Shown: piece after piece, positions 6,300 through 39,642 of the stretch | Layout: each line of letters starts with the position of its first letter | Position numbering within the stretch: the first letter of the stretch is position 1 | NCBI GenBank assembly: GCA_031368515.1 | Contig: JANMNW010000674.1 | Span: 3,969 to 67,968 of the forward strand | Reading direction: 5' to 3' | Source: Chloroflexota bacterium | Lineage (GTDB): Bacteria; Chloroflexota; Anaerolineae; J036; Brachytrichaceae | Length of the DNA: 64,000 nucleotides | Made by a program: the position numbers and the translations under genes | Notes under the pieces: model-generated | What the model was told of the DNA's origin: nothing | Databases searched by the model: none | Seen by the model: the letters and a program-made list of their open reading frames with translations, nothing else

Positions 6300-6312
<13 letters not shown>
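5998..6312 (-). CDS. Hpt-like four-helix protein; canonical phospho-accepting His position is Gln
   Basis: 104 aa, helical. ARTIAQQIAAGSRFIGAARL aligns with the Hpt signature A-H-x-L-K-G-S-x-x-x-x-G-A but has Q at the His position. The start overlaps the stop of the hybrid kinase by 13 nt. Confidence 0.45.
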
Positions 6313-8914
<2,602 letters not shown>

Positions 8915-21932: not shown

Positions 21933-22092
21933 CACATGCCTCCACAGTAGCGCGAGTGGCCGTTTCTCGCCGCCTCGCACCCCTATTTTTAACAACGGCC
22001 TGAAACTGGCGCATCGGCCATGTGCGCCTTTCGCACTGACCAGTTGGACAGGTGATCTATTGCGTGGCCTACAATCAGCTCGGAGACTGGAG

Positions 22093-24972
22093 ATGAAAGT
22101 GAAACTTGCACTTCGCCCGCACATATGCCTGGCCGCAGCCATTTGCCTGGCCGGCGTGCCCGCCCGTGGCGCTGGCAGGGCGCATGCCGATTCAGCAGCC
22201 CATCCGCTACCATTCGCGCAGGATTGGTCGACGACATCGTTCATCACAACATCCAACGATTGGTCCAGCGTGCCGGGCATTCTGGGCTATCGCGGAGACG
22301 CGCTGACAAGCTCCGACGGCGCCGATCCGCAGCTCATCCTCGCGCCAGGCGACACCACACCGCTTAACGTGGCCGCCAACCAGACCAACCCAAACACTTT
22401 CACCACGGGCGGGGTGGCCGAGTTCGACACCCTCGCCGACCCAAGCATCGCCCTGCAAGGCTCCGGCACCGCCGACGCGCCGCACATCGTGATCAACCTG
22501 GACACGCGCGGCTGGCAATCTGTGACCGTTGAGTATTTGTTGCGCGATCTGGATGGCTCGGCCGACAACGCCGCACAGCAAGTGGCGCTGCACTATCGCG
22601 TGGGTGCAGGCGGCGGCTTTGTCAATGTGCCGGCTGCCTATGTCGCCGATGCCACCCATGGGCCCAGCCTTGCCACACTCACCACGACCGTGAGTGTGAC
22701 GCTTTCGGCAAGCGTCAACAACAAGCCGCTTGTTCAGCTGCGCATTCTCACAAGCAATGCCGCCGGCAGCGACGAATGGGTCGGCATCGACGACATCCGC
22801 GTCACGGGCGCGCCACTGCCGCCGGGCAGTGCAGATATCTCAGTTGCCAAGAGCGGCCCGGCCAGCGCGGTGCCGGGCAGCCTTGTCACCTACACGCTCA
22901 GCGTGCTCAACTATGGCCCGGCGGCGGCATCCGTTGTGCTTACAGACAGCCTGCCCACCGGTTTCGTCGCGGTTACCCACACGGCATCGGTCAGCGCCAG
23001 CACTGGCAGCGGCTCGCTCGCATGGGACATCGGTTCGCTGGCTTCCGGCGCGGAGCTATCTTTCACACTCGTGCTCAGCGCAGCCGGCGCGCCGGGCATC
23101 TACACCAACACAATAACCGCATCGACTGCGGTGACAGAATCAGACAGTTCAAACAATGCCGCCACCGCGACAACCGTGCTGGGGCTGCCGCCCGTGCCTG
23201 CCCGCATTCGCGACATTCAAGGCGCGTCGCACACCTCGCCGTTGAACGGCAGCGCGGTGGCCAGCGTGCCTGGCATCGTCACACTGCGCCGACCGTCATC
23301 GTTCTATATGCAGGATGCGACATCGGATGGCGATCCGTCCACTTCGGAAGGCATTCTGGTGTTCACCGGCAGCACGCCGACGGTCAACGTCGGTGACGCG
23401 GTGTTGGTTACTGCGACGGTGCAGGAATTTCGCCCCGGCGGAAGTGGCGGCCTCGGCAACTTGACGCTGACCGAGCTGGTCAATCCGAGCGTGATGACCC
23501 TCTCATCAGGCAACATCCTGCCCGCTCCGGTCATCATGGGAATCGGCGGACGACTCGCGCCAACCCAGACGATCGAAAACGACGCCAGCGGCGATGTTGA
23601 GCTGGGCGCGCTGTTCGACCCGGCCAATGACGGCCTCGATTTTTACGAATCGCTCGAAGGCATGCGTGTGCAGGTCAACGATGCGCTGGCCGTCGGCCCA
23701 ACCAGCGACTTTGGCGAAATAGCCGTGGTGGCCGACAATGGCGCGCACGCCGGTGAACGCCAGGTGCGCGGCGGTGTGGTCATCTCGCCCACCGATTTCA
23801 ACCCGGAGCGCATCATCATTGACGATGCGGCGATCGGAGCGGCGATGCCAAGGATGAATGTCGGCGACAGCGCGACTGCGCCGATCACCGGCGTGATCGA
23901 CTATGCATTTGAGAACTTCAAGCTGCTGGTCGCCGCGCCGTTTTCTGTAACGCTAGGCGCGCTCACGCCTGAGACCACCACAGCCGTGCTAAGCGGCACG
24001 CTGGCGGTCGCCACGATGAACGTCGAAAATCTGAGCGTGCTGGACCCCATCACGAAATTCAACCGTCTGGCCGGCATTGTGGTGAACAACCTTGGCGCGC
24101 CCGATCTTCTTGCGCTGGAAGAGGTGCAAGACAACAGCGGGCCAGGCAGCGACGGTGTGGTCGACGCGACGCAGACGTATTCGCAGTTCATCGCCGCGAT
24201 CGCAGCCAGCGGCGGGCCGTCGTATCAATTTACGCAGATCGATCCGGTCAACGGGCAGGACGGCGGGCAGCCGGGCGGCAACATCCGCGTCGGGTTCTTG
24301 TTTCGCACCGACCGTGGTCTCAGCCTGACCGCACGGCCCGGCGCAGTCGCATCCACGCCCAACACGGTGATCACAGGCACCGGCGGCGTGCGCCTGCAGT
24401 ATTCGCCCGGGCGCATCGATCCGGCAAACACCGCGTTTAGCGCCAGCCGCAAGCCGTTGGCGGCCGAGTTCGCCTACCGCGGCAAAGCGCTGTTTGTCAT
24501 CGCCAATCACTTCAATTCAAAAGGCGGCGACGATGCGCTGTTTGGACGCTATCAGCCGCCGGTGCTCAACAGCGAAAATCAGCGCGTGGCGCAGGCTGTC
24601 GTCGTGCGCGATTTTGTCGCGCAGATACTGAGCGCCGATCCGGCTGCGGCGGTGATCGTGCTGGGCGATTTGAACGACTTCGAGTGGTCGCCGCCGCTGT
24701 CCATGCTCAAAGCGGCGGGGTTTACCACGCTGGTCGAAACACTGCCAAAATCCGAGCGTTACACGTATGTGTTCGAAGGCAACTCGCAGGTGCTCGATCA
24801 CATCATGGTGTCGCCGCACTTGCGCGCGGCCTATGCCGCAACGCTCGACATCGTGCATGTCAACAGCGAGTTTTTCGATCAGGTCAGCGATCATGATCCG
24901 CAGGTGGCCACGTTTGAGCCAGTGGCGGACGGGTCGCGGTTATATTTGCCGCTCGTTGCCCACGCACCATGA
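22093..24972 (+). CDS. Secreted ExeM/NucH-type extracellular nuclease (N-terminal accessory domain, DUF11 repeat, OB-like region, endonuclease/exonuclease/phosphatase domain)
   Basis: Signal peptide MKVKLALRPHICLAAAICLAGVPARGAG. DUF11-like ADISVAKSGP...YTLSVLNYGP...ESDSSNN. IRDIQGASHTSPL is typical of this nuclease family. C-terminal EEP motifs VATMNVENL, LALEEVQDN, VLGDLNDF, SDHDP. Confidence 0.8.
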   Translation: MKVKLALRPHICLAAAICLAGVPARGAGRAHADSAAHPLPFAQDWSTTSFITTSNDWSSVPGILGYRGDALTSSDGADPQLILAPGDTTPLNVAANQTNPNTFTTGGVAEFDTLADPSIALQGSGTADAPHIVINLDTRGWQSVTVEYLLRDLDGSADNAAQQVALHYRVGAGGGFVNVPAAYVADATHGPSLATLTTTVSVTLSASVNNKPLVQLRILTSNAAGSDEWVGIDDIRVTGAPLPPGSADISVAKSGPASAVPGSLVTYTLSVLNYGPAAASVVLTDSLPTGFVAVTHTASVSASTGSGSLAWDIGSLASGAELSFTLVLSAAGAPGIYTNTITASTAVTESDSSNNAATATTVLGLPPVPARIRDIQGASHTSPLNGSAVASVPGIVTLRRPSSFYMQDATSDGDPSTSEGILVFTGSTPTVNVGDAVLVTATVQEFRPGGSGGLGNLTLTELVNPSVMTLSSGNILPAPVIMGIGGRLAPTQTIENDASGDVELGALFDPANDGLDFYESLEGMRVQVNDALAVGPTSDFGEIAVVADNGAHAGERQVRGGVVISPTDFNPERIIIDDAAIGAAMPRMNVGDSATAPITGVIDYAFENFKLLVAAPFSVTLGALTPETTTAVLSGTLAVATMNVENLSVLDPITKFNRLAGIVVNNLGAPDLLALEEVQDNSGPGSDGVVDATQTYSQFIAAIAASGGPSYQFTQIDPVNGQDGGQPGGNIRVGFLFRTDRGLSLTARPGAVASTPNTVITGTGGVRLQYSPGRIDPANTAFSASRKPLAAEFAYRGKALFVIANHFNSKGGDDALFGRYQPPVLNSENQRVAQAVVVRDFVAQILSADPAAAVIVLGDLNDFEWSPPLSMLKAAGFTTLVETLPKSERYTYVFEGNSQVLDHIMVSPHLRAAYAATLDIVHVNSEFFDQVSDHDPQVATFEPVADGSRLYLPLVAHAP

Positions 24973-26017: not shown

Positions 26018-27889
26018 CTAGACCGCCACCACGCGCAATTCGATATCGGCCAGCGTCACGGCATCGCCTGGCTGCAGCGCAACCCGGGCATGCGCCGCCA
26101 GCCGCTCGCCATTCTTGCGTGTGCCATTCGACGAATTCAGATCGGTCACATGCAAGCCACCGGCCATGTCAAAGCGCGCGTGCGCGGCCGACAGAAAAGC
26201 GCTCGGCAACGTCACCGCATGCGCGCCGCACGGCGCGCGGCCGAGCACCAAGCCGTCGGCGCTGGCCGGAACCACGATGTCGCGGCCGGCTTGCGCACCG
26301 CTGGACACGCGCAGGCGCAGCCCGCCGCTTGCCACCTCGCCCGGCGCGGCAGCATTGATGAGATGCGTGCCTGACGCGCTGTGACCAAACTCAGCGGCCG
26401 GCGGCGCGACCACCGCGCGTACCAGCGTTTGCGCGTCGCCGCCGACTCGCGCGTGCCGCACACCAAATGCCGCATCTGCCGCAAGCGCATTGTGTGGCCT
26501 GGGCGGCGCATATGAGCGGCGCGCGCGAAGGGCAATGGCCGCGCCGCCAAGCAGCGTGACGACGGTCGTGGCAAGTCCGGCCACACCCGCAAGCGAGATC
26601 GAAACGCTGGGCGCCGGCGCAGCCTCGGCGCCAAGACCCGCCTGCGCCAGCGCGTGCGCAGCTGCAGTATCGGCGACGGCCAGCAACACTACGCGCTCGC
26701 CATACAACCGCATGTCTTGCACGCTGCCGTAGGCCCTGATCTTCAACGCTGTCGGCACGTTCGGGTCGAGCATGGCGGTGTCCAGCGTCAAGCTGAACGG
26801 CGGGCGCGCGGCCACTTCGGTGCGCGCGCCCAGCGTGTACTCTACGCGCTCGATATGCCGCCCCAGCACGCGCGGCGTCAAGCGAATTTGCTGCTCCATG
26901 GGCAGTGCCTGCGGGGCGACGGGTGCGCCTGCCGCCGCCAACTCCGGCCAATCGACAATCGGCGCAGCCGGCATGGGCACGAACGTCTGCGCAGCCTGCA
27001 GCGTGTCCATGCCCGCCCGCACGCGCACCACCGCCATGCGTTGGGTCAACGCCGGCGCCGCCCATGCGTCAAACCGCAGGCGGTAGCGCGCCCTCTGCCG
27101 CCAGGCGATCTGTGCGAAGGCGTGAGCGATGGCGTTCTTTGCGCCGGCGGCAATGTGCAGGCCACCGCTCGCCTGAGCCAGCCGATTGAGCGCGCGATGG
27201 TCCGCCGCGCCCACGCCAATGCTGATGATCGGCACGCCGTGAGCGCGTGCCAATGCAACGGCCTCGTCCAATGCGCACGCCGGTCCCAGCGCACTTCTTG
27301 CTGGCGCATCGCGGCCATCGCCAATTGCAATGATTACGCGCGCAATCTGCTTGCGCGAAGCCGACTTTTCGACTTCATCGCACAGCGCGTCGTAGAAGCG
27401 CGCGCGTGGGTCCGGGAGCAGCGCCTGAATAGCAGCGCGCGCTGATGCCGCGTCATTTTCAATCAGCGGTGACGCTGAGGGTGCATCGACTGACGCGCCC
27501 GCAACACGCCACAGCAAGGCGTCGCCCGGATCAATCGCGTCCAATGCCCTTGACGCGGCGTCGTTGAGCGCGCGCATCGAGCGCATCGGAACGCCAGGGT
27601 CAACGAGCACCGTCACATGCATGCGCACCGCCGGGTCGGCAAGCTTGCGCAGGCTCAACACGCGAGCGGGCGCGCCGGCGCTTTCGACGGTCACATCACC
27701 CGCCTGCACGTCATCAATCGGATCGCCGCGCCGATTGCGCAGCACCAGTTCGCACGACACCTCTGGATAGGCCGCGGCATCACACTTCTCCAGAACGGCT
27801 ATGGCGGAATCCAACGCGCGCGCAGGATTTGGCCTTTGCAGCGCACCGCACCCGAACGCGCACAAAAGCGCGGCCATCAGCAGGCGCAT
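26018..27889 (-). CDS. Signal peptide + extracytoplasmic vWA-like domain + TM helix + cytoplasmic FHA domain
   Basis: N-terminal MRLLMAALLCAFGCGAL. vWA-like blocks VTVLVDPGVPM (degenerate MIDAS), VIIAIGDGRDA, GVPIISIGVGAADHRALNRLAQASGG. TM helix LAGVAGLATTVVTLLGGAAIAL followed by RARR. C-terminal FHA: LVLGRAP..., SAAHARF, DLNSSNGTRKNGERL. Its start lies 1 nt after the upstream stop. Confidence 0.7.
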   Translation of the reverse strand: MRLLMAALLCAFGCGALQRPNPARALDSAIAVLEKCDAAAYPEVSCELVLRNRRGDPIDDVQAGDVTVESAGAPARVLSLRKLADPAVRMHVTVLVDPGVPMRSMRALNDAASRALDAIDPGDALLWRVAGASVDAPSASPLIENDAASARAAIQALLPDPRARFYDALCDEVEKSASRKQIARVIIAIGDGRDAPARSALGPACALDEAVALARAHGVPIISIGVGAADHRALNRLAQASGGLHIAAGAKNAIAHAFAQIAWRQRARYRLRFDAWAAPALTQRMAVVRVRAGMDTLQAAQTFVPMPAAPIVDWPELAAAGAPVAPQALPMEQQIRLTPRVLGRHIERVEYTLGARTEVAARPPFSLTLDTAMLDPNVPTALKIRAYGSVQDMRLYGERVVLLAVADTAAAHALAQAGLGAEAAPAPSVSISLAGVAGLATTVVTLLGGAAIALRARRSYAPPRPHNALAADAAFGVRHARVGGDAQTLVRAVVAPPAAEFGHSASGTHLINAAAPGEVASGGLRLRVSSGAQAGRDIVVPASADGLVLGRAPCGAHAVTLPSAFLSAAHARFDMAGGLHVTDLNSSNGTRKNGERLAAHARVALQPGDAVTLADIELRVVAV

Positions 27890-27890
27890 G

Positions 27891-29450
27891 TCAGATCACC
27901 ACCCGCAAGGCCGTCGATCCCAGCACCAGCTCGTCGCCAATATCCACCACACACGGCCCATCGATGCGTTGACCGCGCACCAGCACTCCATTGGCCGCGC
28001 GCGGCATCGGCCGCACGTGCCAGGCGTTGTCGGAAAAATGGAGCTCCGCATGCCAGCGCGAGATTTCGCGGTCGGCCGGGTTGAGCATGTCGCGGCCCAG
28101 CAGCATGGGCGAGCCCGTCACTGGCACGATGCGGCGCGCAGCAGCCACATGCAGCCGTATCGGCCGCAGCGCGTGTGGGGGCTTGTCCGCATCATGCGCT
28201 TGCGCGGCCAATCCATCCGCGCCCCGGACATCCGCGATGAGGCGCGCAAGTTCGCGCGCGCTGATCATGCGCCTGCGCGCATCCATGCCCAGCGCAAGAT
28301 GAATTGCCGCCCGCAGCTCGCGCGGCAGCGCCAGCCCGGCATCATCAAGAGCAACAGATTGGCCAGGCGCCGACCTCATTTGCGCATCATCGCATCCAAG
28401 CAACTGGCAGGCCAGGCTGGCGAATGCGCGCATGTCCGACGCCGCGCCGCCGCCGTCATCTGCCCGGGCCGCCGCGCCCGTTCGCGCCGCAAACAGCCGG
28501 GCCAGGCCCGCGTTGGCCAGTTGAATGTGATTGTCGGCGCCGATCAACACGTCGCCGGCTGTCAGCGCGCCATGCGCAAGCCCGGCGTCATGCAGCGCTG
28601 CCAACGCTTCCGATAGCTCATGCATGAGCCGCAAGGCTTCATGTTGCGGCGCCCGCTCGCGCATGCGGCCGGCCAGCGAGCCACCATGCGCAAAGGCTTC
28701 GATCAGATAAGGCGGTTCATGCGCGTCATCACCGCCATAGATCGGCGCCACAAGCGCATGCTTGAACGCCATCCCGGCGCGCAGATGCCGGGCAAAGCTG
28801 GCGCGCAACCCGTCCGGATCGCGGCGCAACAGCGTGTCGTTTAGAAATTTCACCGCAACCGCGCATCCCTCGCCCTCAGCGCAGCGCGCATCAGGCAGCC
28901 GCCCCGTCCGTAGCGCCGCCCGCCGCACCACGAAATGCTGGCCGACATGCACCACCTCGTCCAAATCGCACTGGCTGAGCCGAATCGGCTGTGAGCCCGC
29001 GCACGCAGCAGGCACGGCAGCGGCGCAATCGTTCGGCACAGCGCGTGGAATGGGCCACTCGCACCCAGCGCCAAGCACGGCATACACCGAACGCCCAATT
29101 TGGAATTGATCACCCGGCGCCAGCAATTCGTCGAAGACACGCCGGCCGTCGATCCAGGTGCCGTTGGCGCTGCCCAGATCGCGCAAGCGCAGTTCCGTCG
29201 CCGCGCGTTGCACCATCGCATGCTCGCGCGACGCATCCGGATCGGCGATGCGCGCCGGGCAGTGCGCCCCGCGGCCAATCAACAGCGCCTCGTCGCCAAT
29301 CCGGTAAAACGCGCCGTCGTTGGCGCCGGCCACACAAGCCAGCATCAAGCTCGGCTGGCGGCGGCGCTGCCGGCGGCGCAACAGCACCACCACGACCAAC
29401 ATAAGCAAAAGCGCCATGCACGGCGCGGCCCAAAACATCCACATTGGCAT
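27891..29450 (-). CDS. Membrane-anchored FHA - pseudokinase - FHA protein
   Basis: TM helix MWMFWAAPCMALLLMLVVVVLL + RRRQRRRQ. FHA1: LLIGRGAHC..SREHAMV..DLGSANGTWIDGRRV. The kinase-like core has VAVKFL, YLIEAFAHGGSL and LHDAGLAHGALTAGDVLI (HRD changed to HGA), then IQLANAGLA (DFG changed to NAG). FHA2: LLGRDM..SRWHAEL..ANGVLVRGQRI. The start is ATG 29450, or 29444 which has better SD spacing. Confidence 0.7.
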   Translation of the reverse strand: MPMWMFWAAPCMALLLMLVVVVLLRRRQRRRQPSLMLACVAGANDGAFYRIGDEALLIGRGAHCPARIADPDASREHAMVQRAATELRLRDLGSANGTWIDGRRVFDELLAPGDQFQIGRSVYAVLGAGCEWPIPRAVPNDCAAAVPAACAGSQPIRLSQCDLDEVVHVGQHFVVRRAALRTGRLPDARCAEGEGCAVAVKFLNDTLLRRDPDGLRASFARHLRAGMAFKHALVAPIYGGDDAHEPPYLIEAFAHGGSLAGRMRERAPQHEALRLMHELSEALAALHDAGLAHGALTAGDVLIGADNHIQLANAGLARLFAARTGAAARADDGGGAASDMRAFASLACQLLGCDDAQMRSAPGQSVALDDAGLALPRELRAAIHLALGMDARRRMISARELARLIADVRGADGLAAQAHDADKPPHALRPIRLHVAAARRIVPVTGSPMLLGRDMLNPADREISRWHAELHFSDNAWHVRPMPRAANGVLVRGQRIDGPCVVDIGDELVLGSTALRVVI

Positions 29451-29466
29451 CTCCCCACCGCTGCGC

Positions 29467-29781
29467 TCAGGCCCCGCCCCGCCGCAAGCGGTCTTCGATT
29501 TCCCGGCGCGCGCGCTCCTCGGCTTCCTGCACAATGTGGGCCGTATCTCGCAAAATTCCAGCAATGCGCGAAAGCATGCCTGGCAGCTGCGCAGAACGCG
29601 CGGCGCACGACTGCGCCTGCGCGCTGAATTCGTCGGAAGCGATGCCGTCCCAGGCCTCGAGTGCCTGTTGCGTGGCCTGCCCCGCCTGAGTCAGCACGTC
29701 GGTTTCGCCCGCTGCGCCTCGCTCAAACTCGCGGGCCACGGCGCGCATCTCGTCATAGTCGATTCCCAAAATAAAGGACAT
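29467..29781 (-). CDS. WXG100-family protein (paralogue 4)
   Basis: 104 aa helical hairpin. MSFILGIDYDEM N-terminus, central W-D-G, GGAG upstream of the ATG at 29781. Confidence 0.8.
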   Translation of the reverse strand: MSFILGIDYDEMRAVAREFERGAAGETDVLTQAGQATQQALEAWDGIASDEFSAQAQSCAARSAQLPGMLSRIAGILRDTAHIVQEAEERARREIEDRLRRGGA

Positions 29782-29805
29782 CTTTCGCTCCAACAGCCGG
29801 CGGGG

Positions 29806-30114
29806 TCACCCATCGGCCGAAATCGTGTGCGCAATCTCGGCGCGCGCCAGCGCCTCATGCTCTTCGACGATGCGCGCGGTTTCGCGCACATCGGTTGCCA
29901 GTTCGTCAAGCAGCGCCAGCGCGCGGCGCATGCGCGTGCGGCAGCTGAGGAGCTGCGCCATGAACTCCTGTTCCGCCACGCCATCCCAGCCTTCAAGCAA
30001 TTGCCGGTTGCGCGCATCGGCCCGGGCGAGGCAGCGCTTGATCACGCCGCCCTGCGCATCGAATGCTTGAGCCGTCGCCCGCAGCGCGTCGTATGGCGCC
30101 CGTATCGAGCTCAT
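29806..30114 (-). CDS. WXG100-family protein (paralogue 3)
   Basis: 102 aa with central LEGWDGVAEQEF. ATGA overlap with the stop of paralogue 2. Confidence 0.8.
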   Translation of the reverse strand: MSSIRAPYDALRATAQAFDAQGGVIKRCLARADARNRQLLEGWDGVAEQEFMAQLLSCRTRMRRALALLDELATDVRETARIVEEHEALARAEIAHTISADG

Positions 30115-30434
30115 GCTTCGCCTCCGGCAGTGTCATTGACCACGGCTGTCTCAATGGCGTCGCGCGCGCGCTGCTCCGCCAGGCGAATGGTGCGCGCCGT
30201 GATGTGCAGCGCAGTGCTGATCTGGTCAAGCACGAGCGGCACATGGCTCATGTCGCGCAGGCAGGCGGCGTAAGCCGGGTCAAATGCCGCGCGCGCCTTG
30301 CCCAGCCACAGCGGCGTCAGCTCGCCCACCGCTCGCTCAATGGCATGTATTGCCGCACGGGCTTCCTCTGCGCAACCGCCGATATCGAGCGCCACCGCCG
30401 TCATTTCGTCATAATTCAGGCGAATCTGGCCCAT
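30111..30434 (-). CDS. WXG100-family protein (paralogue 2)
   Basis: 107 aa. MGQIRLNYDEM, central W-L-G. AAGGAAGGA lies upstream of the ATG. Confidence 0.8.
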   Translation of the reverse strand: MGQIRLNYDEMTAVALDIGGCAEEARAAIHAIERAVGELTPLWLGKARAAFDPAYAACLRDMSHVPLVLDQISTALHITARTIRLAEQRARDAIETAVVNDTAGGEA

Positions 30435-30527: not shown

Positions 30528-30839
30528 CTAATTCGTGTCGTCCACGATCGCGCTGCCGATCTGCGCCCGCGCTTCTTCTTCAGCGCGCTGCACGAGGTCG
30601 GACGCTGTTTTGATGGCGGTGGAAATTTCGCTCATCATCAGCGGCGTGTGCTGCAGGCGCGCCATGCACGAATCGATCTGGGCGAGGAACTCGGTGTCCG
30701 CCACGCCCTCCCAACCCGCGCTCAGCTTGTCCGACTCGCCTTTCACGCGCTTAACCAGCTCGTCCGCCTGCTGCGACATCTGCATAAAGGTGTTCGAGCT
30801 CGCCGCCATCTCTTCATAGTTCATCTTGATTTGGCTCAT
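30528..30839 (-). CDS. WXG100-family protein (paralogue 1)
   Basis: 103 aa. MSQIKMNYEEM, central SAGWEGVADTEF. AAAGGAG lies upstream of the ATG at 30839. Confidence 0.85.
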   Translation of the reverse strand: MSQIKMNYEEMAASSNTFMQMSQQADELVKRVKGESDKLSAGWEGVADTEFLAQIDSCMARLQHTPLMMSEISTAIKTASDLVQRAEEEARAQIGSAIVDDTN

Positions 30840-31608: not shown

Positions 31609-34600
31609 TCATTGATTTTCCGGCGCTTTTAGCACAGCTTGCCCAATCGCGCTCAGCCAGTCGCCCCAGCCCCAGCCCTCCTCTTGCGGCACGGCAAATC
31701 GCGCGCGCAGCGGTTTGGACTGCCTGCGGCAGGTGTAGTAGCCGTGCCCGGCCGGCAACGGCTTGTCGCGTTCGCCCACGGGCAAGCGCAATCCAAAACC
31801 GACTGATTGCAGGCCGCCCAACACCACCCACGACTGCGCGTCCTTGATGCGTTTGAGCCAGCCGTCCAGCGCATCAAGCGCGCGATCAGGCCCGGCCATC
31901 AGCACATGAAAAGGCAAGCGTAAGCCGGCGCGTTCCAACAGGCCATCCAGCCGCTCTTTGGCCACGCGCGGCAATGCGCGGACAAAAGCGTCGGCGTCGT
32001 CAATCGCAAGCACCACCGCGGGCAGGCCGCGGGCTATCGTGGATGCGCTCCATTCCGGCGTCGCCGCGCGCGCGGCATGCTGCATCTCGCCCATGCTTTC
32101 CAGCGTGGCGGCAAGCTCATCAAGCAGCGCAGGAATTTCATCGCCATGCTGCGCACACTGGCGCACGTGCGGCAACCCGGACAGCGCGGCCAAGCCGTCG
32201 TCCGCGCCGCTGACATCGCACAGATACACCATCAGCTGGTCGGGATCGCGCGCACGCGCCAGCGACAGCAGCATGCTTTGCAGCACGGAGGTTTTTCCGC
32301 TTTGCGGCGCGCCGGTGACAAGCACGTGCGGGCTGGCGCCGATGTCAATCCGCAAAGGTTGTAAGTCCGCGGTCTGCAGCCCAACCGTGGCGACAAGCGG
32401 CTCGCCGGCACGTTCGCCGGACACACGCGCATGCGGCGCATCAGCCAGAAGCGCGCGCAAAGTCAACTCGGCCGGCATGGTCGCAATCGGCGGCGCGCGC
32501 CGCCCGGCGTATTGCGCGCGCAATGCGCCAGCCGCTTCGGCCAGTTGCGCCGCGCGCTCGGCATCGGTGGCGCCCGGCGCTGGCAGCGCCGCCTGGAATT
32601 CCAGCGGGCTCTGCCCCATCCGTTTGATCAGCCCGCGCCCGGGCGTCGCCGCCGGTTCCAGGCCGCCCGTCCGTCCAACCACTGCGGCATAGTCGGAGCG
32701 ATCCGCCAGTTGAAACGCAAGCGCGGCCGTGATATTGCCGCTCACGCGGCTGCGCACGTCAAGCGGTTTGTTGGCGCTGATCACCACATGCATCCCCAGC
32801 GGCGCGCCTTCGCGCACTACAGTGACCAGCGTATCTTCGTAGTCCATGCGGGCAAAAGCCGGATAGTTGTCGATGACCAGCAGGATCGCCGGCATGCCAG
32901 CCGCGGCGCCCAGATCGGCAAACTTGCGGCCGGCCAGCGCGTCTTTGCGCAAGGCCAATTCGCGCCGCAGCTGGCGAAACAGCCGCATCAGGCGTTCATC
33001 GTCGTCTTCAAACAGCACGGCGCCCACCTGCGGCAGCGCAGCCAACGCCGTCAGGCTGCGGCTGCCAAAGTCCAGCACGTAGGCATTTAGCTCGTCGGGC
33101 GAATGCGCACGCGCCAGCGCTAGCAACAGTGTTTGCAGCAAGGTTGATTTGCCTGCACCGGCCTGGCCGAACATCATCAGGTGCCCATCGCGGCCCAAAT
33201 CGATGATTGCCGCATCCTGCCGGCGCTCGCGCGGGTCGTCCATGCGGCCAATGACTGCGCGCAACCAGCCCGCAGTGTCGCCGGATGCGGCCGCCGATTC
33301 AAGCAGCAGCCGTTCGGGCAATGGATCGAGCCAGATGCGTTCGGCCGCTTGCACGTGTTCGGCGAGCGTTGTCCGGCGCACGTGGTCCATCAGCGCAGCC
33401 AACTGGCGCGGCTGTTCGCCGCCTGGCGGGCGCGGTTGCGTGATCCAGCAGCGCCGTTGCAGATCGGGCGTGCCATCGAGCAGCAGCGGCGCCACGTACC
33501 GTTGCGCCGCGTCCGGGTCTTCGTCCGGGTCGTAGCGCGCTCCGCCATACGCCGATTGAAATCGCTCATAGCGCTCATCGCTGCCCACCAGAAAGTATGC
33601 CTCTCCCGCGCGCGCAAGGTGAGCGGCATCGGGGCGTTTGAGCATTTCCTTGCTGTCACTTTCGTCCTGCACGCGCAGGCACAGCTTGAAGCGGCTGTTC
33701 GACCAGATCTGGTCGTCTACAACGCCAGACGGTTTTTGAGTGGCAAGGATCAGATGCACGCCCAGGCTGCGGCCGATTCGCGCGGCGCTGATCAGCTGCT
33801 TCATAAAGTCGGGCTGGTCGCGTTTCAGCTCGGCAAACTCATCCACGATGATCACCAGACGCGGCATGGCCTTGAAGCGATCGGCGCCGCCTGCCGCATA
33901 TAGGCGCTGATAGTCGTCGATATAGGTCACGCTGTGCTGATCAAAGATGCGTTGACGCCGCTTGAGCTCGCTGGCCAGCGCGATAAGCGCGCGGCGCGCG
34001 GCGCTGGGCTCAACGAGGTTGGTAATCACGCCGCTCAAATGCGGCAGGTCGATATCCGGCACGGGCGACACCGTGCGCGCGGCCGAACGCTGGCGCAGAA
34101 ACGCATTGGCCATGCCGCCGCCTTTGTAGTCAATCAACAAAAATGAAATCCACTCCGGGCTGAAGCGCACCGCCAGCGAAGCGATCAGGGTCTGCAACAA
34201 CTCGCTTTTGCCCGCGCCGGTTGTGCCGGCGACCAACCCATGCGCGCCATGGCCGCGATCTCCATCGCGCAAATCCAGCTGCAGCAATCGTCCACCCGCC
34301 GCGCGGCCGATCGGCACGACAAGCGAGCCTGCGTCCAAATGCGCATGCGTGCGCCACAGCCCGGCGACATCCACATCCTCCACGTGGCGGGCATCCCACA
34401 GTGAAAGCAGCGTCACGGCCGCAGGAATTTCAGCGGGTGCGGCGGTGCGGCGCAGCCGGATGGCTGACAGCGAGCGCGCCAACGCCTCGCACTCCAGCCC
34501 CGGCAGCGCGTCTACGCTGTCGAGCTGTCGCGGGCGGCCGTTGTCGGTCGCCGCAAACAGACGCGCGCGGCCGGCTTCATAGTGGACATAGGCGTCGCAC

Positions 34601-35946
34601 TCGCGCGGCAACAGATGCCGGTGGTCCGCCAGAAACACCGCGGTAAACCCTGCGCCGCGCGCCAGCGCAAGCAACTGCGGCAGCGCAGCATCTTGGCCAA
34701 ACAGGCCGGGCTCCGCCAGAAAGAAAAGGGTATGGCGCGGAAGCTGTTCAGCCCGCGCCTTGCGATGCGCGGCCAGCAAGACGGCGTCAAGCGCGCGTTT
34801 GGCGCCGTCGGGGTCGCACGCCAGCAGGCGATGGCGGTGTTCGGCATCCCACGCATGCGGCAACCAGCGCATCCAGCGCCACGCATCGCCCTCAGTTTCC
34901 GGGAAAACCGCGGCGAGTGCGAGATCGTCCGGGCTGTGATGCGCGGCCAGCTGCGCCGCCAGCGCGAAACAGGCGCGCAGCAGCGCGGCGCGCGGGCCGG
35001 CCAGCCCCAGCGCGCGCAACTGGCCGACCGGCACGCACAGCGGCACGCGCTCGATCGCGGCAAACGCGTCCGCCAGTTCAAGCATGCGGTCGCCCAGCGC
35101 ATCGGGCGCCAACAACGGCTCGTAGCGCGCAGTCTTGATCGTGAAGCGGGCGGGCGCGCGCCCAAGACCGATACGCGCCTGCAAGTAATCGGGGTCGCCC
35201 GGTTCGCGCATCCACACGCGCGCGCATTGCCGCACGCGGCCGCGCAGAGTGTGCAAGTCCGGGTCCTCGTCCAGCGCTTCGATTCGCAGGCGATTGACTT
35301 GCGCCGCCAGCTGCGCGCGACGTTGCTCCAGATATGAGTCGTAACGCGCGGCGCGTTCAGCCATATCGCGGGCATGGCGGCGCCGTTCGCTGACATAGGA
35401 CCACAGGCCTGTCAGCGCGGACGCGCCCATGAATCCGGTGGTGAGAAAGTTCATCGGACCGTTGGCATGCGGCAAGCTCACCGTTGCGGCCAGAGATGCG
35501 ACGGCAAACGCCGCCGGCATTACGATGCCCGGCCATTGCAGGCGCGGCGCGCTTGGCGCGTTGGGCGGCGCGGTCAGTTCGATCTCACCCCCTTCCAATT
35601 GAAAAAATGGACGCGGCGGGCGCTGGAAGAATGGCTGCGGCTTGGCGGGCAAAACGGCGGGCGAGCGGTCGCTGTGTTGCGGCCGCTCGGATACGCAGAC
35701 CAGATGCACCTGCGCGCCATCCCAAACACCAGCGTGATCCAGACTGTCCTCTGCCCGCAGCGGCACGCGCGCGTCGCATTGCTCGGCATGCGAGATGATC
35801 CAGTGTTGGCCGGCAGGGCATCGCCAGTCCAGCGCGCTGGCGATGGCCGGCGCAAGGTCATAGGCTGGCACATCAGCGGGCGCGCGCACGTCTTCGGGCG
35901 GCCAGCCTGCGGCATTGGCTGTAACAAACACCTGTCGCATCGTCAT
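31609..35946 (-). CDS. EssC/EccC-like FtsK/SpoIIIE-family type VII secretion ATPase with N-terminal YukD-like ubiquitin fold
   Basis: N-terminal ~85 aa resemble YukD/EsaB (QHWIIS..., SLDHAGVWDGAQVHLV). Two TM helices (WPGIVMPAAFAVASLAATVSL, MNFLTTGFMGASALTGLWSYV). Three P-loops: GTTGAGKSE, GQAGAGKST, GAPQSGKTS. Walker B motifs: VIIVDEFAEL, LLVIDNYPAF, VLAIDDADAF. The start is 35946 or 35940, not 35979 (see findings). Confidence 0.9.
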   Translation of the reverse strand: MTMRQVFVTANAAGWPPEDVRAPADVPAYDLAPAIASALDWRCPAGQHWIISHAEQCDARVPLRAEDSLDHAGVWDGAQVHLVCVSERPQHSDRSPAVLPAKPQPFFQRPPRPFFQLEGGEIELTAPPNAPSAPRLQWPGIVMPAAFAVASLAATVSLPHANGPMNFLTTGFMGASALTGLWSYVSERRRHARDMAERAARYDSYLEQRRAQLAAQVNRLRIEALDEDPDLHTLRGRVRQCARVWMREPGDPDYLQARIGLGRAPARFTIKTARYEPLLAPDALGDRMLELADAFAAIERVPLCVPVGQLRALGLAGPRAALLRACFALAAQLAAHHSPDDLALAAVFPETEGDAWRWMRWLPHAWDAEHRHRLLACDPDGAKRALDAVLLAAHRKARAEQLPRHTLFFLAEPGLFGQDAALPQLLALARGAGFTAVFLADHRHLLPRECDAYVHYEAGRARLFAATDNGRPRQLDSVDALPGLECEALARSLSAIRLRRTAAPAEIPAAVTLLSLWDARHVEDVDVAGLWRTHAHLDAGSLVVPIGRAAGGRLLQLDLRDGDRGHGAHGLVAGTTGAGKSELLQTLIASLAVRFSPEWISFLLIDYKGGGMANAFLRQRSAARTVSPVPDIDLPHLSGVITNLVEPSAARRALIALASELKRRQRIFDQHSVTYIDDYQRLYAAGGADRFKAMPRLVIIVDEFAELKRDQPDFMKQLISAARIGRSLGVHLILATQKPSGVVDDQIWSNSRFKLCLRVQDESDSKEMLKRPDAAHLARAGEAYFLVGSDERYERFQSAYGGARYDPDEDPDAAQRYVAPLLLDGTPDLQRRCWITQPRPPGGEQPRQLAALMDHVRRTTLAEHVQAAERIWLDPLPERLLLESAAASGDTAGWLRAVIGRMDDPRERRQDAAIIDLGRDGHLMMFGQAGAGKSTLLQTLLLALARAHSPDELNAYVLDFGSRSLTALAALPQVGAVLFEDDDERLMRLFRQLRRELALRKDALAGRKFADLGAAAGMPAILLVIDNYPAFARMDYEDTLVTVVREGAPLGMHVVISANKPLDVRSRVSGNITAALAFQLADRSDYAAVVGRTGGLEPAATPGRGLIKRMGQSPLEFQAALPAPGATDAERAAQLAEAAGALRAQYAGRRAPPIATMPAELTLRALLADAPHARVSGERAGEPLVATVGLQTADLQPLRIDIGASPHVLVTGAPQSGKTSVLQSMLLSLARARDPDQLMVYLCDVSGADDGLAALSGLPHVRQCAQHGDEIPALLDELAATLESMGEMQHAARAATPEWSASTIARGLPAVVLAIDDADAFVRALPRVAKERLDGLLERAGLRLPFHVLMAGPDRALDALDGWLKRIKDAQSWVVLGGLQSVGFGLRLPVGERDKPLPAGHGYYTCRRQSKPLRARFAVPQEEGWGWGDWLSAIGQAVLKAPENQ

Positions 35947-35984
35947 TTCCAGGAACGGCGATAGTGTGCGACAAAGCATGCAGA

Positions 35985-36188: not shown

Positions 36189-38201
36189 ATGGGCACGTCC
36201 CAGGCTTGTCAAGGGGTTGTTGTGGCGTTTGATCTGATTGGAAAAACGCTCGGCCCATACCGCATTGACGCATTGCTCGGCGCTGGCGGCATGGCCGAGG
36301 TGTACAAAGCCTTTCAACCGAGCATGGACCGCATTGTCGCGCTCAAAGCGCTCCCGGCCGCGCTCAGCGCACAGCCGGAGTTTCGCGAGCGCTTTCGCCG
36401 CGAAGCAAAGCTGATCGCCCAGCTCAAGCACACGCACATTCTGCCGGTGTATGACTTCGGCGAAGCCGAAGGCCACGCCTACCTGGTCATGCCGCTGATG
36501 GAAAACGGCACGATCGCTTCGCGCGTGCGCGGCCGCCGCCTCCCGCTCGAAGACATCGTGCGCGTCGGCACGCAAATCGGCGACGCGCTCGATTACGCGC
36601 ACGAAAAAGGCATGGTGCATCGCGATGTCAAACCAGGCAACATCCTGCTCGACACGCGCGGCAATTGCCTGCTCAGCGACTTTGGCATCGCGCGGATGAC
36701 GGTCGACACGCTCACGCCGGATCAATCGCGCATGGGCACGCCTGCCTACATGTCGCCCGAACAAGCCGAAGGCGACAACATCGACGGCCGCTCCGATGTT
36801 TATTCGCTGGGCGTGGTGCTCTATGAACTGGCCACTGGGCGACGACCGTTTGACTCGTCCGACCCCAATGTGCTGATGTATCAGCACGCACACAATACGC
36901 CGCCTGCCCCGCGCAGCATCGATCCCACCCTTCCCGAGCAGCTGGAATGGGTCATCCTGCATGCGATGGCCAAACGCCCGGCCGACCGCTTCATCAATGG
37001 CGCTGAGCTTGGCCGGGCGCTGCGCCCGCTGATTATCAGCGAGCGCAGCGGTCCCGATGCCGCACGCCCGCGCATCGCCCCGGATTTGCCGGTCGCCAGC
37101 AAAGTTGCCGGGCCTGTGGCCTCGGATGCCGCAACTGCGCCGCGCCCCAACGCCGAAGCCCCGCCGCCCGCGCGGAATGCGCCGCTCAATACCGCGCTGC
37201 TGCCCGCAGGCGTGGCGCGCCCGGGTGCCGCGCGCCCGGCTTTCCAACCGGCGCCCTTCGCGCCACCGGCGCCGGCCAAAGCGCGTTGGCGCCTCCCCAG
37301 ATTCAGACGGATTTTCGCCATCGGACAGAGCGCACGGCCGTCGCCGGCAAGCTACGGATATGGCGGCGCGCACGAACGGTCCAGGCCGCTGTTCAACACG
37401 CTTTTTGCCGGGCTGGCCGGCGCGATTATTCTGGTGCTGCTGGCCAGCGCGGTCAGCAACTTCTTGCGCAGCATCAACGAGCAGGCTGCGGCCATCGCGC
37501 CGCCCACCGCCACCTATGCGGCTTTCGCCACAGCGTTGGCTGATGCGACAGAAACGCCGGCGCCGGCTGAGACTCCTGCGCAAGTGACAGTCGCCGCCGC
37601 AGCCGATGCCCCGGCTGTTGCAGTGACAATCGCGCCCGCGCAAGTCACCGAAACGCCTTTGAGCGCGCGGCCGCTTGCCGAGCCGGCGGCCTGCGCGCGC
37701 GCCAGCGCGCTGACGCTCGACCCCGGCCAGCTCCAGGGCGTCGGATGTCCATCGCAGGCATTGGTGCCGGCGCGGCGCGTGATGGTGCAGACATTCGAAC
37801 GCGGCATCATGGTGCTGTTTCTGCGCAACAACAGCGCGTTGAACGGCGGGGTCATCTACGCGCTCGCAAGCGATGGCCACGCCTGGCGCATCAGCGACAC
37901 CTGGGCCAGCGCTTCACGCAATCGCGACACTTGGTACTCGTGCCGCGCGGCGCCCGGGCAATCGCCCGCGCAATCCGGTGTGCCATGGCGCGGATTTGGG
38001 CGGGCATGGTGCAACGACCAGGCGCTGGCCTCTGCTTTGGGTGCGGCCGTCACGGAAGAATCGGATGCGCGAGCGGCTTTCCAGGCGCATGCCAACGGGC
38101 GCGTCTTTCGGCTGGACAACTGGCCCGGCGCGCCTGGCTTTGCGCCGGAGCGCATCTATGCCGTGGCCATGCTCGACAATCGCTCCGAGCAGTGGCGCTG
38201 A
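36189..38201 (+). CDS. Receptor-type Hanks Ser/Thr protein kinase (kinase, Pro/Ala-rich linker, TM helix, Cys-containing ectodomain)
   Basis: LGAGGMAEVYKA, VALK, HRDVKPGNILL, SDFGIA, GTPAYMSPEQ. TM helix LFAGLAGAIILVLLASAVSNFL. The ~230-aa C-terminal domain has 4 Cys. Confidence 0.9.
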   Translation: MGTSQACQGVVVAFDLIGKTLGPYRIDALLGAGGMAEVYKAFQPSMDRIVALKALPAALSAQPEFRERFRREAKLIAQLKHTHILPVYDFGEAEGHAYLVMPLMENGTIASRVRGRRLPLEDIVRVGTQIGDALDYAHEKGMVHRDVKPGNILLDTRGNCLLSDFGIARMTVDTLTPDQSRMGTPAYMSPEQAEGDNIDGRSDVYSLGVVLYELATGRRPFDSSDPNVLMYQHAHNTPPAPRSIDPTLPEQLEWVILHAMAKRPADRFINGAELGRALRPLIISERSGPDAARPRIAPDLPVASKVAGPVASDAATAPRPNAEAPPPARNAPLNTALLPAGVARPGAARPAFQPAPFAPPAPAKARWRLPRFRRIFAIGQSARPSPASYGYGGAHERSRPLFNTLFAGLAGAIILVLLASAVSNFLRSINEQAAAIAPPTATYAAFATALADATETPAPAETPAQVTVAAAADAPAVAVTIAPAQVTETPLSARPLAEPAACARASALTLDPGQLQGVGCPSQALVPARRVMVQTFERGIMVLFLRNNSALNGGVIYALASDGHAWRISDTWASASRNRDTWYSCRAAPGQSPAQSGVPWRGFGRAWCNDQALASALGAAVTEESDARAAFQAHANGRVFRLDNWPGAPGFAPERIYAVAMLDNRSEQWR

Positions 38202-38202
38202 A

Positions 38203-39642
38203 CTAGCGCCACAGGTCGAGCTGCGGCGGCGCGGTATCCGGAAACCAGCGCGCATAGATCTCGGCGTAGCTGCCATCGGCGATCATTTGCTGCAACGCAA
38301 GATTGACCGCGTCGCGCAGCGGCGATTGTCGCTGGGGCAGACCGATGGCCACAGTCGTGTCGCCGGCGCGATAGATCGGTGTTGAAAAATCGATCACCCG
38401 GTCAAGCGTCTGTGTGCGCGGCAGCCCGCCGATCACCAGATCGGCCGTCCCGGCGGCAAAAACTTGTGCCGCATCGCCAGCCAGCGGCAAAAACTCAACC
38501 GACTCCGCCGAACCCATCACGCGTGCGCCGATGGCGCGAGACAGCTCCACCTCAAACCCGCCCGGCAAATTGTTCTCTTCAAGCCGGGAAAAAGGCGGAT
38601 TGCTGGCAAAGGCCACGCGCAAACGATTGGCCGCGCGAGCTTGGGCCAAACGATCAACCGATTGCAGCGCGTCAGGCAGCTGCGCAAGCTGCAAGTCGAT
38701 CGGCCCCAGCAGGGGCGCCAGCGCCGAAGGATCGGGCGGCGCGCCAAACCATTGTTGATACAGGCGCGCATACGTGCCGTCCAACATCATGTTGCTCAGC
38801 GTGATGTTGACCAGGTCCGCCCACTCGGAATCGCCTGGCGGCAGCACAATGGCCACCGGTTCGCGCTTGAAGACGCTCAGGACAAACAGCGCGGGGTCCT
38901 GCGCCGCGCGCGTGCGCAAGCGGCGCCAGCGCCCGGCCATGCCATCCACATCGCCGTTGGCCAGCAGGCCGTATGCCTCGGCATAGGTGCTGGCCGCCTT
39001 GGTCGTCACTGTGACGCCATTGACGTTTTGCGCATCGCGCAGTGCAAAGGTGCTCGCGTCGTCAACGTAGACGATCGGCCGCCCGGCCAGCGACACAAAA
39101 TCCGAGAACGTCCCGGTGCGCACTAGCAACGCATCGCCGTCCTGCAGGTAGGGCATGCTGAAATCCGCTTCAAGCTCGGCGGCGCGGCTCTGCACAATGC
39201 CGCCCATGGCCAGATCGACCTCTCGCGCGCGCACTTTGCCCGGCGCCGAATTGCTGGTGACCTGAACAAACTCAACATTGCGATCGCTGCCCAGCCAGCG
39301 CCGCGCAAACTGCCGCGCCAAATCCACGTCAAAGCCTTCGAGCTCGCCACGGTCGTTTACCCGCGACAGCGGCGGGGCATCAAAGCGAATGCCGACGCGA
39401 ATGCGGCTGCGCAGCTTGACCAGCGCCGCGGTTGAATAATCCGGCGGCGGCGGCGTCACCGAGGCTTCGATCGTCACCGGGTCGGCCGTGGCCACCACGC
39501 GCGCAATCGAATCGACATTGACGTAGCGCTGCACGGTGTCCAGCGAAAGCGAGCTGCACGCGGTCATAGCCAGCGTCAGCAACGCCGCCAGCGCGCGCCG
39601 CGCCGCGCCGATGCCTGTAGCTTTGCCCACGGTCTCACTCAC
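38203..39642 (-). CDS. Lipoprotein with two tandem family-3 (amino-acid type) solute-binding domains
   Basis: Lipobox LTLAMTACSS. Two repeats of the SBP_bac_3-like pattern: IRVGIRFDAPPLS...GFDVDLAR and LRVAFASNPPFS...GFEVELSR. Confidence 0.8.
   Translation of the reverse strand: MSETVGKATGIGAARRALAALLTLAMTACSSLSLDTVQRYVNVDSIARVVATADPVTIEASVTPPPPDYSTAALVKLRSRIRVGIRFDAPPLSRVNDRGELEGFDVDLARQFARRWLGSDRNVEFVQVTSNSAPGKVRAREVDLAMGGIVQSRAAELEADFSMPYLQDGDALLVRTGTFSDFVSLAGRPIVYVDDASTFALRDAQNVNGVTVTTKAASTYAEAYGLLANGDVDGMAGRWRRLRTRAAQDPALFVLSVFKREPVAIVLPPGDSEWADLVNITLSNMMLDGTYARLYQQWFGAPPDPSALAPLLGPIDLQLAQLPDALQSVDRLAQARAANRLRVAFASNPPFSRLEENNLPGGFEVELSRAIGARVMGSAESVEFLPLAGDAAQVFAAGTADLVIGGLPRTQTLDRVIDFSTPIYRAGDTTVAIGLPQRQSPLRDAVNLALQQMIADGSYAEIYARWFPDTAPPQLDLWR

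Follow-up and report, generated by a model that had tools for sequence, protein, structure and literature searches.

Type VII secretion beyond the ESX and T7SSb systems is poorly understood, and what replaces EssB, EssA and EsaA, or EccB, EccD and EccE, in variant clusters is an open question. It is raised by a locus in a stretch of 64 000 nt from a Chloroflexota bacterium (assembly GCA_031368515.1, contig JANMNW010000674.1, positions 3969–67 968; hereafter the window), in which a gene for a membrane-anchored protein with an FHA domain, a kinase-like core and a second FHA domain (hereafter the target) lies beside genes for WXG100 proteins, an EssC-type ATPase and an intact Ser/Thr kinase. An earlier note on this DNA had read the target as a pseudokinase with built-in phospho-readers and linked it to EssB, the pseudokinase subunit of T7SSb. 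We asked what such a protein does in this setting. Our analysis identified it as a pseudokinase that descends from active kinases of the same architecture, and we consider it somewhat probable that it is a non-catalytic, phospho-dependent membrane scaffold dedicated to a non-canonical cluster resembling a type VII secretion system (T7SS).

The open reading frame (ORF) of the target spans 27891–29564 on the minus strand. Starting at the ATG at 29450 it encodes 519 aa, and an alternative ATG two codons on, at 29444, would give 517 aa; a Shine–Dalgarno-like GGGGAG lies just 5′ of this pair, and five orthologues with 76–100 % identity share the same start position. The sole strongly hydrophobic segment is the N-terminal transmembrane (TM) helix (Table 1), and because it precedes RRRQRRRQ the positive-inside rule predicts that the bulk of the protein is cytoplasmic. 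Pfam recognized two FHA stretches (E 1.2e-21, 77.3 bits) and matched PK_Tyr_Ser-Thr to residues 190–321 (E 4.8e-11, 42.9 bits vs a cut-off of 23.1), with the Pkinase model scoring below its own cut-off. An AlphaFold2 model with a mean predicted local distance difference test (pLDDT) score of 78.7 displayed the same succession of FHA, kinase and FHA domains. When this model was searched with Foldseek, PknB (6b2p, TM-score 0.73) and PknA (4ow8, 0.71; both target-normalized) were among the leading matches, and all 50 best of at least 2000 matches were canonical kinases. The best sequence matches in the PDB were likewise PknB and PknA, with Rad53 also among the PDB sequence matches.

Over the central region the Hanks-type kinase fold is complete, with both lobes. 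In hhalign, a profile built from 24 family members aligned with the neighbouring active kinase (36189–38201) at a probability of 100 % and E 3.6e-50, and because the alignment spans 263 columns, from the Gly-rich loop to αI, the whole kinase domain is present and not the N-lobe alone. BLASTP against the same kinase paired HGALTAGDVLI with HRDVKPGNILL and LANAGLARL with LSDFGIARM. Accordingly, the target has HGA for HRD, D300 for the catalytic-loop Asn and N313-A-G for DFG, whilst the VAIK Lys (K201, in VAVK) is the only catalytic residue of the six-motif set that it retains. The Gly-rich loop is degraded to HVGQHF with a single Gly left, the αC Glu is lost and the activation segment is shorter by 14–24 residues than that of active relatives. 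Since all catalytic residues but the VAIK Lys are gone, the target is a pseudokinase. The earlier note had proposed the anchored cytoplasmic layout, the domain order, the retained VAVK, each of the substitutions at HRD, the catalytic-loop Asn and DFG, and the pseudokinase call itself; these proposals were borne out by hydropathy, Pfam, the structural model, BLASTP and the 24-sequence alignment, in which the core aligned end to end with the kinase fold and no catalytic Asp was hidden by misalignment. The loss of the αC Glu and Gly-rich loop, the shortened activation segment, the descent from an active family and the constant VWA-TM-FHA partner described below go beyond that note.

A column-by-column motif table was computed from the 24-sequence alignment, which comprised 11 near-clade sequences (the target and its 10 nearest relatives, 36–100 % identity), 12 far-clade sequences (24–31 % identity) and P0053, a further family member that degenerated independently. 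The far clade shares the TM–FHA–kinase–FHA architecture of the target and reads H[RK]D, Asn in the catalytic loop and D[FL]G, with a GGQ-type Gly-rich loop and often the αC Glu. In contrast, the near clade reads H-G/C-x, Asp and N-x-G (G-V-G in one sequence) at these motifs, with a single Gly in the loop and no αC Glu, and all 11 of its members are without the HRD and DFG aspartates. Activation segments measured 14–24 residues in nine near-clade sequences and 35 and 39 in the other two, compared to 38–46 in the far clade, where a P+1/APE-like stretch is kept; most of the near clade has lost both the P+1 loop and APE. By its sequence relationships the target thus descends from an active FHA–kinase–FHA family.

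The dead active-site region is nonetheless not decaying. Nei–Gojobori ratios of non-synonymous to synonymous substitution rates (dN/dS) between the target and its 82 % orthologue in locus L019 were 0.059 for residues 253–322, from αD to the NAG motif, and 0.059 for the second FHA domain, compared to 0.155 for the kinase N-lobe, 0.17 for the first FHA domain and 0.36–0.48 for the linkers, which shows strong purifying selection. Such constraint also bears on the alternative that the target still binds nucleotide and metal, serving either as an ATP-dependent conformational switch or as an atypical, low-activity kinase. The β3 Lys (K201) is invariant in 24/24 family sequences, and the exchange of metal ligands, Asn to Asp in the catalytic loop (D300) and Asp to Asn in DFG (N313), is paired in 10 of the 11 near-clade sequences; because these positions were swapped rather than lost, some residual nucleotide or metal binding is conceivable. 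The catalytic base, however, has gone, with the HRD Asp replaced by Ala in the target and the HRD Arg by Gly or Cys in the near clade, and the missing αC Glu, the single remaining Gly of the Gly-rich loop and the widespread deletion of activation segment, P+1 loop and APE all speak against nucleotide use. We regard this alternative as quite unlikely.

A second alternative is that the target is a true, if diverged, member of the EssB/YukC family, which is how the EssB link of the earlier note would read if taken as homology. It would account for a kinase-like fold with degraded catalytic motifs, a single TM helix and a gene beside those of EssC and WXG100 proteins. However, no Pfam YukC (PF10140) match was found at E≤1, and the family profile aligned with Staphylococcus aureus EssB (4ANN, sequence verified against the PDB) at an hhalign probability of 0.16 %, in contrast to the 100 % obtained for the Hanks kinase. 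PknB and PknA are the best matches by sequence and structure, the TM helix is N-terminal with no extracellular domain to follow, and the close relatives of the same architecture are active kinases. Family membership is therefore barely credible, and the link to EssB did not hold as homology; an EssB-like role in the sense of functional analogy is plausible.

The FHA domains, in contrast to the kinase core, retain their key residues. The six phosphothreonine-pocket positions of GarA (G-R / S-x-x-H / N-G) are kept in both FHA domains of the target, and also in those of the neighbouring VWA-TM-FHA and FHA-OmpR proteins, making four of the four FHA domains at the locus. By this residue set both target domains are predicted to be of the phosphothreonine-binding type, in keeping with the phospho-reader function first suggested for them. 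The sole Thr of the target that is invariant in the near clade, T513, lies in a β-strand and is structural, which suggests a reader and not a conserved substrate.

The surrounding genes (Table 1) include an EssC-type ATPase with three FtsK/SpoIIIE domains together with WXG100 genes, the combination by which a minimal T7SS is defined. Three of the four small genes exceeded the WXG100 cut-off by Pfam and the fourth did so by TIGR03930; their adjacency to the target had been noticed before, as had the ATPase and the active kinase, both recovered here by Pfam/NCBIfam, although the previous count of three WXG100 genes has to be raised to four. Among the cluster genes, Pfam found no EssA, EssB, EsaA or separate EsaB/YukD, as would mark T7SSb, and the T7SSa components EccB, EccD, EccE and MycP were unmatched by the ORFs between 26018 and 39642 (Pfam/NCBIfam). 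The ATG of the VWA-TM-FHA gene begins 1 nt past the target stop codon and WXG100 gene 4 overlaps the target start by 4 nt in loci L021 and L025, which indicates that these genes form one operon, in which the target is translationally coupled.

Table 1. Position and supporting evidence of the target, its domains and the neighbouring genes in the window
Feature	Coordinates	Strand	Evidence or remark
VWA-TM-FHA partner, 623 aa: signal-like N-terminus, divergent VWA ectodomain, TM 436–454, cytoplasmic FHA	26018..27889	(-)	
Target gene, TM-FHA-pseudokinase-FHA, 519 aa	27891..29450	(-)	ORF, Pfam, orthologues, AlphaFold2 model
Target TM anchor, residues 6–24, then RRRQRRRQ	29379..29435	(-)	Kyte–Doolittle hydropathy 2.72; helix 3–30 in AlphaFold2 model
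Target FHA domain 1, residues 34–126 (G59-R60, S74-R75-x-H77, N96-G97)	29073..29351	(-)	Pfam, AlphaFold2 model, GarA alignment; dN/dS 0.17
Target Hanks-type pseudokinase domain, residues 159–411	28218..28976	(-)	Motif alignments, AlphaFold2 model, Foldseek, hhalign, dN/dS
Target FHA domain 2, residues 429–519 (G452-R453, S464-R465-x-H467, N487-G488)	27894..28166	(-)	Pfam, AlphaFold2 model, GarA alignment; dN/dS 0.059
WXG100 gene 4	29467..29793	(-)	Ends 16 nt before target
WXG100 gene 3	29806..30114	(-)	Pfam WXG100 39.4 bits, above cut-off
WXG100 gene 2	30111..30434	(-)	Pfam WXG100 37.4 bits
WXG100 gene 1	30528..30839	(-)	TIGR03930 52.7 bits vs cut-off 44.85
FHA + OmpR/PhoB-type winged-helix DNA-binding protein, 208 aa	30956..31582	(-)	Kept in L019, L021, L022, L025
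EssC-type T7SS ATPase, three FtsK/SpoIIIE domains	31609..35940	(-)	TIGR03928 (NCBIfam EssC equivalog) 956 bits vs cut-off 778.4
Intact Hanks Ser/Thr kinase, 670 aa: cytoplasmic kinase domain, TM 404–422, ~250-aa ectodomain	36189..38201	(+)	Pfam Pkinase 164 bits
SBP_bac_3 solute-binding protein, lipoprotein-like leader	38203..39642	(-)	Conserved in L019, L021

The N-terminus of EssC departs from that of its T7SSb counterpart. Residues 93–368 align with residues 214–486 of Bacillus subtilis YukB (9qks), just past the two FHA domains of YukB, and no FHA match was found by Pfam in the EssC N-terminus. Its first ~90 residues gave a sub-threshold Pfam YukD match (24.8 bits vs 27). The L021 orthologue gave an equally weak one, and the precomputed annotation of the EssC homologues P0278 and P0283 includes PF08817. 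An AlphaFold2 model of the N-terminus reached a pLDDT of 54 and retrieved nothing with Foldseek at E≤0.001. EssC probably carries a YukD-like ubiquitin-like domain at the place where YukB/EssC has its FHA domains. Close homologues of this EssC are few, comprising four clusters at 51–95 % identity, and those of the next tier (30–32 % identity) all have N-terminal FHA domains. A kinase gene is immediately upstream of one next-tier homologue (L112), an arrangement as described for T7SSd. Another member of that tier, P0283, has a Ubl-FHA-EssC (ubiquitin-like–FHA–EssC) organization and is a possible intermediate. P0030, P0038, P0049 and P0071 were considered as EssC proteins with similar FHA domains and rejected, being multi-FHA repeat proteins. 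The EssC ORF of the window could begin at 35979; the L019 orthologue begins at the Met equivalent to 35940.

The remaining cluster genes suggest how signals might enter and leave. The intact kinase gene, divergent from essC, is conserved in L019 and L021. NF052427 (StpK7, a mycobacterial kinase–SBP fusion) matched both the kinase and the adjacent solute-binding protein (SBP), which suggests that the pair is a split amino-acid-sensing kinase, with the SBP_bac_3 protein as a possible extracellular sensor partner. On the output side, the same kinase may act on transcription through the FHA-OmpR protein. Its N-terminal tail, in which T6 (T-K-[AL]-L) is conserved in four orthologues, resembles the self-binding phospho-switch of GarA/OdhI, and its combination of FHA and DNA-binding domains follows a logic like that of EmbR. 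The VWA domain of the partner protein (26018–27889) gave a partial Pfam match (E 1e-4), and its metal-ion-dependent adhesion site (MIDAS) motif DxSxS reads D-P-G-V-P; the VWA-FHA orthologues in L023 and L109 match VWA strongly. Metal-dependent ligand binding by this domain may have been lost in the lineage of the window. The sole PP2C-like gene in the window encodes a PP2C/SpoIIE-type phosphatase domain (162 bits; 11924–13429, minus strand).

Relatives of the target were sought in several ways. A word-index search returned only five close orthologues and, when run with the family alignment, was swamped by ordinary kinases and added no members. An exhaustive HMMER search of 1.84 billion representatives returned 20 proteins at E≤1e-30, with same-architecture members also beyond this threshold. 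Peptide patterns drawn from the target alone retrieved generic FHA relatives and no orthologue from GTDB representative genomes, and a metagenome scan with the near-clade alignment, followed by hmmsearch of ORFs in 80 loci, yielded FHA-only or kinase-only genes and no further full-length member. Mapping the neighbourhoods of the recovered members revealed that a 10-gene cassette is syntenic in the lineage of the window down to 40 % identity. Amongst loci with the dead form, L019 (82 % identity) carries genes for the SBP, kinase, EssC, FHA-OmpR protein, four WXG100 proteins, target and VWA-FHA protein; L021 (40 %) carries the same cassette and L025 (38 %) its downstream half. Amongst loci with the active form, L023/L024 (30 %) have four to five WXG100-like genes divergent upstream and VWA-FHA followed by one or two PP2C genes downstream, and L110 (26 %) repeats this pattern. 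The other loci listed here also carry the active form: L107 and L108 have VWA-FHA immediately downstream, L022 has FHA-OmpR immediately upstream, and L109 has several FHA proteins, PP2C and VWA-FHA, its 0.5 kb of upstream sequence containing no WXG100 gene. Long contigs are few for the active clade.

Every family locus with downstream sequence has a VWA-TM-FHA gene, which in L021, L023, L025, L107, L108, L109 and L110 comes directly after the family member or further on in its operon, and both clades mostly adjoin WXG100 genes where upstream sequence exists. These neighbours identify the VWA-TM-FHA protein as an invariant partner and the WXG100 genes as frequent ones. Of the five active-clade loci whose downstream sequence is long enough, four have PP2C, as against none of the three loci with the dead form. 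Beside its four small WXG100-like genes, L110 additionally encodes a protein of 456 aa (6304–7674, minus strand) that starts with a WXG100 domain and is a candidate secreted effector of this T7SS variant.

These neighbourhoods could also be taken to mean that the target belongs to a general kinase/PP2C/vWA/FHA signalling module that merely adjoins secretion genes and whose main output is transcription, through FHA-OmpR, or some other process. VWA-FHA and PP2C accompany the family where no WXG100 gene is visible (L109), kinase–PP2C–vWA triads recur outside T7SS (PMC7159879), and the FHA-OmpR gene, also found in L019, L021 and L025, lies directly upstream of the L022 family member. However, both clades have WXG100 genes directly beside the family member, at identities as low as 26 %, a WXG100 gene is coupled to the target at operon level, and the cluster offers EssC no other candidate membrane partners. 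Regulatory and structural roles are moreover not mutually exclusive. We judge a general module unlikely. An anti-phage defence function was also considered and rejected: PADLOC gave only generic kinase-domain and FtsK-domain matches on the locus, and nothing for the VWA-FHA or FHA-OmpR proteins. The vWA-MoxR ‘ternary’ conflict system (PMC7159879) was likewise set aside, as the locus is without a MoxR or VMAP gene.

We return to the membrane scaffold as the preferred explanation. In the mechanism that we propose, the intact kinase, together with the adjacent solute-binding protein, would sense an extracellular cue or ligand and phosphorylate threonines on cluster proteins. Threonines conserved among orthologues occur in the kinase juxtamembrane segment (T316), the FHA-OmpR tail (T6, T-K-A-L) and EssC (T512), and these are candidate phosphosites. 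Both FHA domains of the pseudokinase and that of the VWA partner would bind the resulting phosphothreonines, and the ensuing complex of single-pass membrane proteins would assemble on, or activate, the EssC translocon. The target would thereby act like EssB/YukC plus the EssC FHA domains of T7SSb, with binding gated by phosphorylation as in PpkA/Fha1. In the B. subtilis core unit resolved by cryo-electron microscopy, a YukC pseudokinase dimer, two YukB FHA domains and the ubiquitin-like YukD form the cytoplasmic assembly hub of T7SSb, in which the pseudokinase binds the FHA domains and YukD acts as a stabilizer (PMC12637312). The analogy to EssB is strengthened because EssC in our cluster is without the FHA domains by which YukB binds YukC (PMC12637312). 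Its strongest argument is that pseudokinase, FHA and ubiquitin-like types all appear here in a different distribution, with FHA domains that, by their residues, would still be phospho-competent. We are less sure of a strictly structural, EssB-like role than of one as a regulatory adaptor, and both may coexist. A more far-reaching version, which we hold to be rather unlikely, is a convergent re-invention of the EssB–EssC interface, whereby an FHA–kinase–FHA enzyme that lost catalysis would have turned into a structural subunit of the translocon and would supply in trans the FHA domains missing from this EssC, with assembly gated by a sensor kinase and, given the conserved Asn/Asp swap, nucleotide as a second switch.

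Several results weigh against this scaffold. AlphaFold2 gave the target no confident inter-domain arrangement (predicted template modelling score 0.51). With T513 structural, the phosphosites must lie on partner proteins, where they can only be guessed at. In the lineage of the window no PP2C gene adjoins the cluster, and in the window itself the closest gene of this type lies 15 kb off. In the active-clade loci L023 and L110 the flanks that were available showed no EssC, and, because L109 has FHA, PP2C and VWA-FHA genes with no WXG100 gene seen, the ancestral module may have been a general signalling unit. Lastly, as AlphaFold2 and Foldseek were uninformative, the evidence for a ubiquitin-like fold in EssC consists of sub-threshold Pfam matches.

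Elsewhere in the window, three regions stood out. Between 46000 and 64000, where G+C drops from about 0.63 to about 0.55, successive minus-strand genes make up a polysaccharide cluster, possibly of foreign origin; they encode, among others, a Wzx-like flippase, an O-antigen-ligase-like protein and an amidotransferase of the asparagine-synthase type (PEP-CTERM/XrtA-like, below cut-off). A divergent GroEL paralogue (2460–4133, plus strand; 349 bits vs the 352-bit PRK12849 cut-off, and far under the GroEL equivalog cut-off) adjoins two ABC-transporter permease genes. A 1044-aa protein (21838–24972, plus strand), in which an endonuclease/exonuclease/phosphatase domain is joined to a DUF11 repeat domain, is probably a nuclease or phosphatase that is secreted or placed at the cell surface.

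In sum, we view the cluster as an undescribed T7SS variant comprising EssC with a probable ubiquitin-like domain, four WXG100 proteins, the target, the VWA-TM-FHA and FHA-OmpR proteins, and a kinase with its solute-binding protein. It is a compact system of about ten genes with three single-pass membrane partners and four putative phosphothreonine readers. The family also provides a natural example of the passage from bacterial kinase to pseudokinase, in which active and dead forms of the same architecture occupy related neighbourhoods and the dead form keeps a separate kinase nearby, without an adjacent PP2C gene in 3/3 loci.

Of the known systems, T7SSb is among the closest to our cluster. 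EssB/YukC (4ANN, 6Z0F; PMC9600267, PMC12637312) shares with the target degraded catalytic motifs and Gly-rich loop and a shortened activation loop; it too is single-pass and encoded beside EssC and WXG100 genes, in a system that also contains FHA and ubiquitin-like domains. In contrast, its topology is an N-terminal cytoplasmic pseudokinase, a TM helix and a C-terminal extracellular domain, an order reversed in the target, which has no ectodomain. EssB/YukC binds the N-terminal region of EssC and is needed for secretion. The target has no detectable sequence relationship to EssB/YukC and is instead a recent Hanks-kinase derivative. Furthermore, the FHA domains are borne by EssC in T7SSb and by the pseudokinase here, and those of T7SSb EssC are without the phosphothreonine-binding consensus (PMC11217815), whereas those of the target keep its residues.

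The association of kinases, phosphatases, vWA and FHA proteins with T7SS is already anticipated in the literature: T7SS variants repeatedly include kinases, PPM phosphatases and proteins with FHA or vWA domains (Garrett, Higginson and Palmer 2024, PMC11217815). The types T7SSc–T7SSj (TscD/E/F, TsdD, TseJ), which were catalogued only in Bacillota and Actinomycetota, share the theme of a membrane Ser/Thr kinase, vWA protein, PP2C and separate FHA protein; in some of them EssC is without FHA domains, and phospho-regulation has been proposed (PMC11217815). They differ in that the active site of TscD is intact and its C-terminus forms an ectodomain, unlike in the target; that the vWA domain of TscE is predicted to be cytoplasmic, whereas that of our cluster is extracellular, with a TM helix joining it to FHA; and that the ubiquitin-like protein is separate, whereas here it is apparently fused to EssC (PMC11217815). 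As far as the descriptions accessible in that paper go, its component list contains no FHA–(pseudo)kinase–FHA protein, VWA-TM-FHA protein or Ubl-fused EssC, which sets those types apart from our cluster (PMC11217815). A 2026 preprint describes the Esr threat-sensing pathway of Actinomycetales, in which a vWA protein, a kinase/phosphatase pair and an FHA output protein, encoded along with Esx genes, were shown experimentally to control Esx (PMC13622651). According to the portion of the preprint available to us, Thr phosphorylation of an FHA protein switches the response on, and post-translational control of EccC through an FHA domain is proposed; Esr has MoxR, a β-propeller surface sensor and a pseudophosphatase–FHA output, whereas our locus is without a MoxR or β-propeller gene, and that portion reports no pseudokinase–FHA fusion (PMC13622651). 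Within the available parts of these two sources, the FHA–pseudokinase–FHA protein, its VWA-TM-FHA partner and the Ubl-fused EssC are undescribed (PMC11217815, PMC13622651).

If the scaffold role is true, assembly gated by phosphorylation would tie the regulation of T7SS mechanistically to PpkA/Fha control of type VI secretion (T6SS). In the T6SS pathways of PpkA/PppA/Fha1, TagH and Agrobacterium TssL–Fha, a membrane Hanks kinase phosphorylates a component and FHA binding triggers assembly or firing. These pathways differ in serving another secretion machine, in having no pseudokinase and in using an FHA protein that is soluble or of the TagH type. A further point in common is a weak match to the TagH model by the VWA-FHA partner's FHA domain. 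The MviN(MurJ)–FhaA pair of Mycobacterium tuberculosis (ActPs3; PMC12599244) brings a membrane pseudokinase, an FHA domain and a Hanks kinase acting in trans, PknB, together in a regulatory complex, as we propose here. There, however, the pseudokinase is the phosphorylated ligand and the FHA domain resides on a separate protein, whereas in the target FHA is fused and a conserved phospho-acceptor Thr is lacking; an FHA–pseudokinase–FHA family does not appear in the accessible part of that review of bacterial pseudokinase families (PMC12599244). The far, active clade is a bacterial counterpart of the Rad53/Chk2-type layout. Yeast Rad53 has the linear order FHA1–kinase–FHA2 and is an active, soluble, eukaryotic enzyme of DNA-damage signalling. 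The resemblance to Rad53 lies in the architecture and is most likely convergent.

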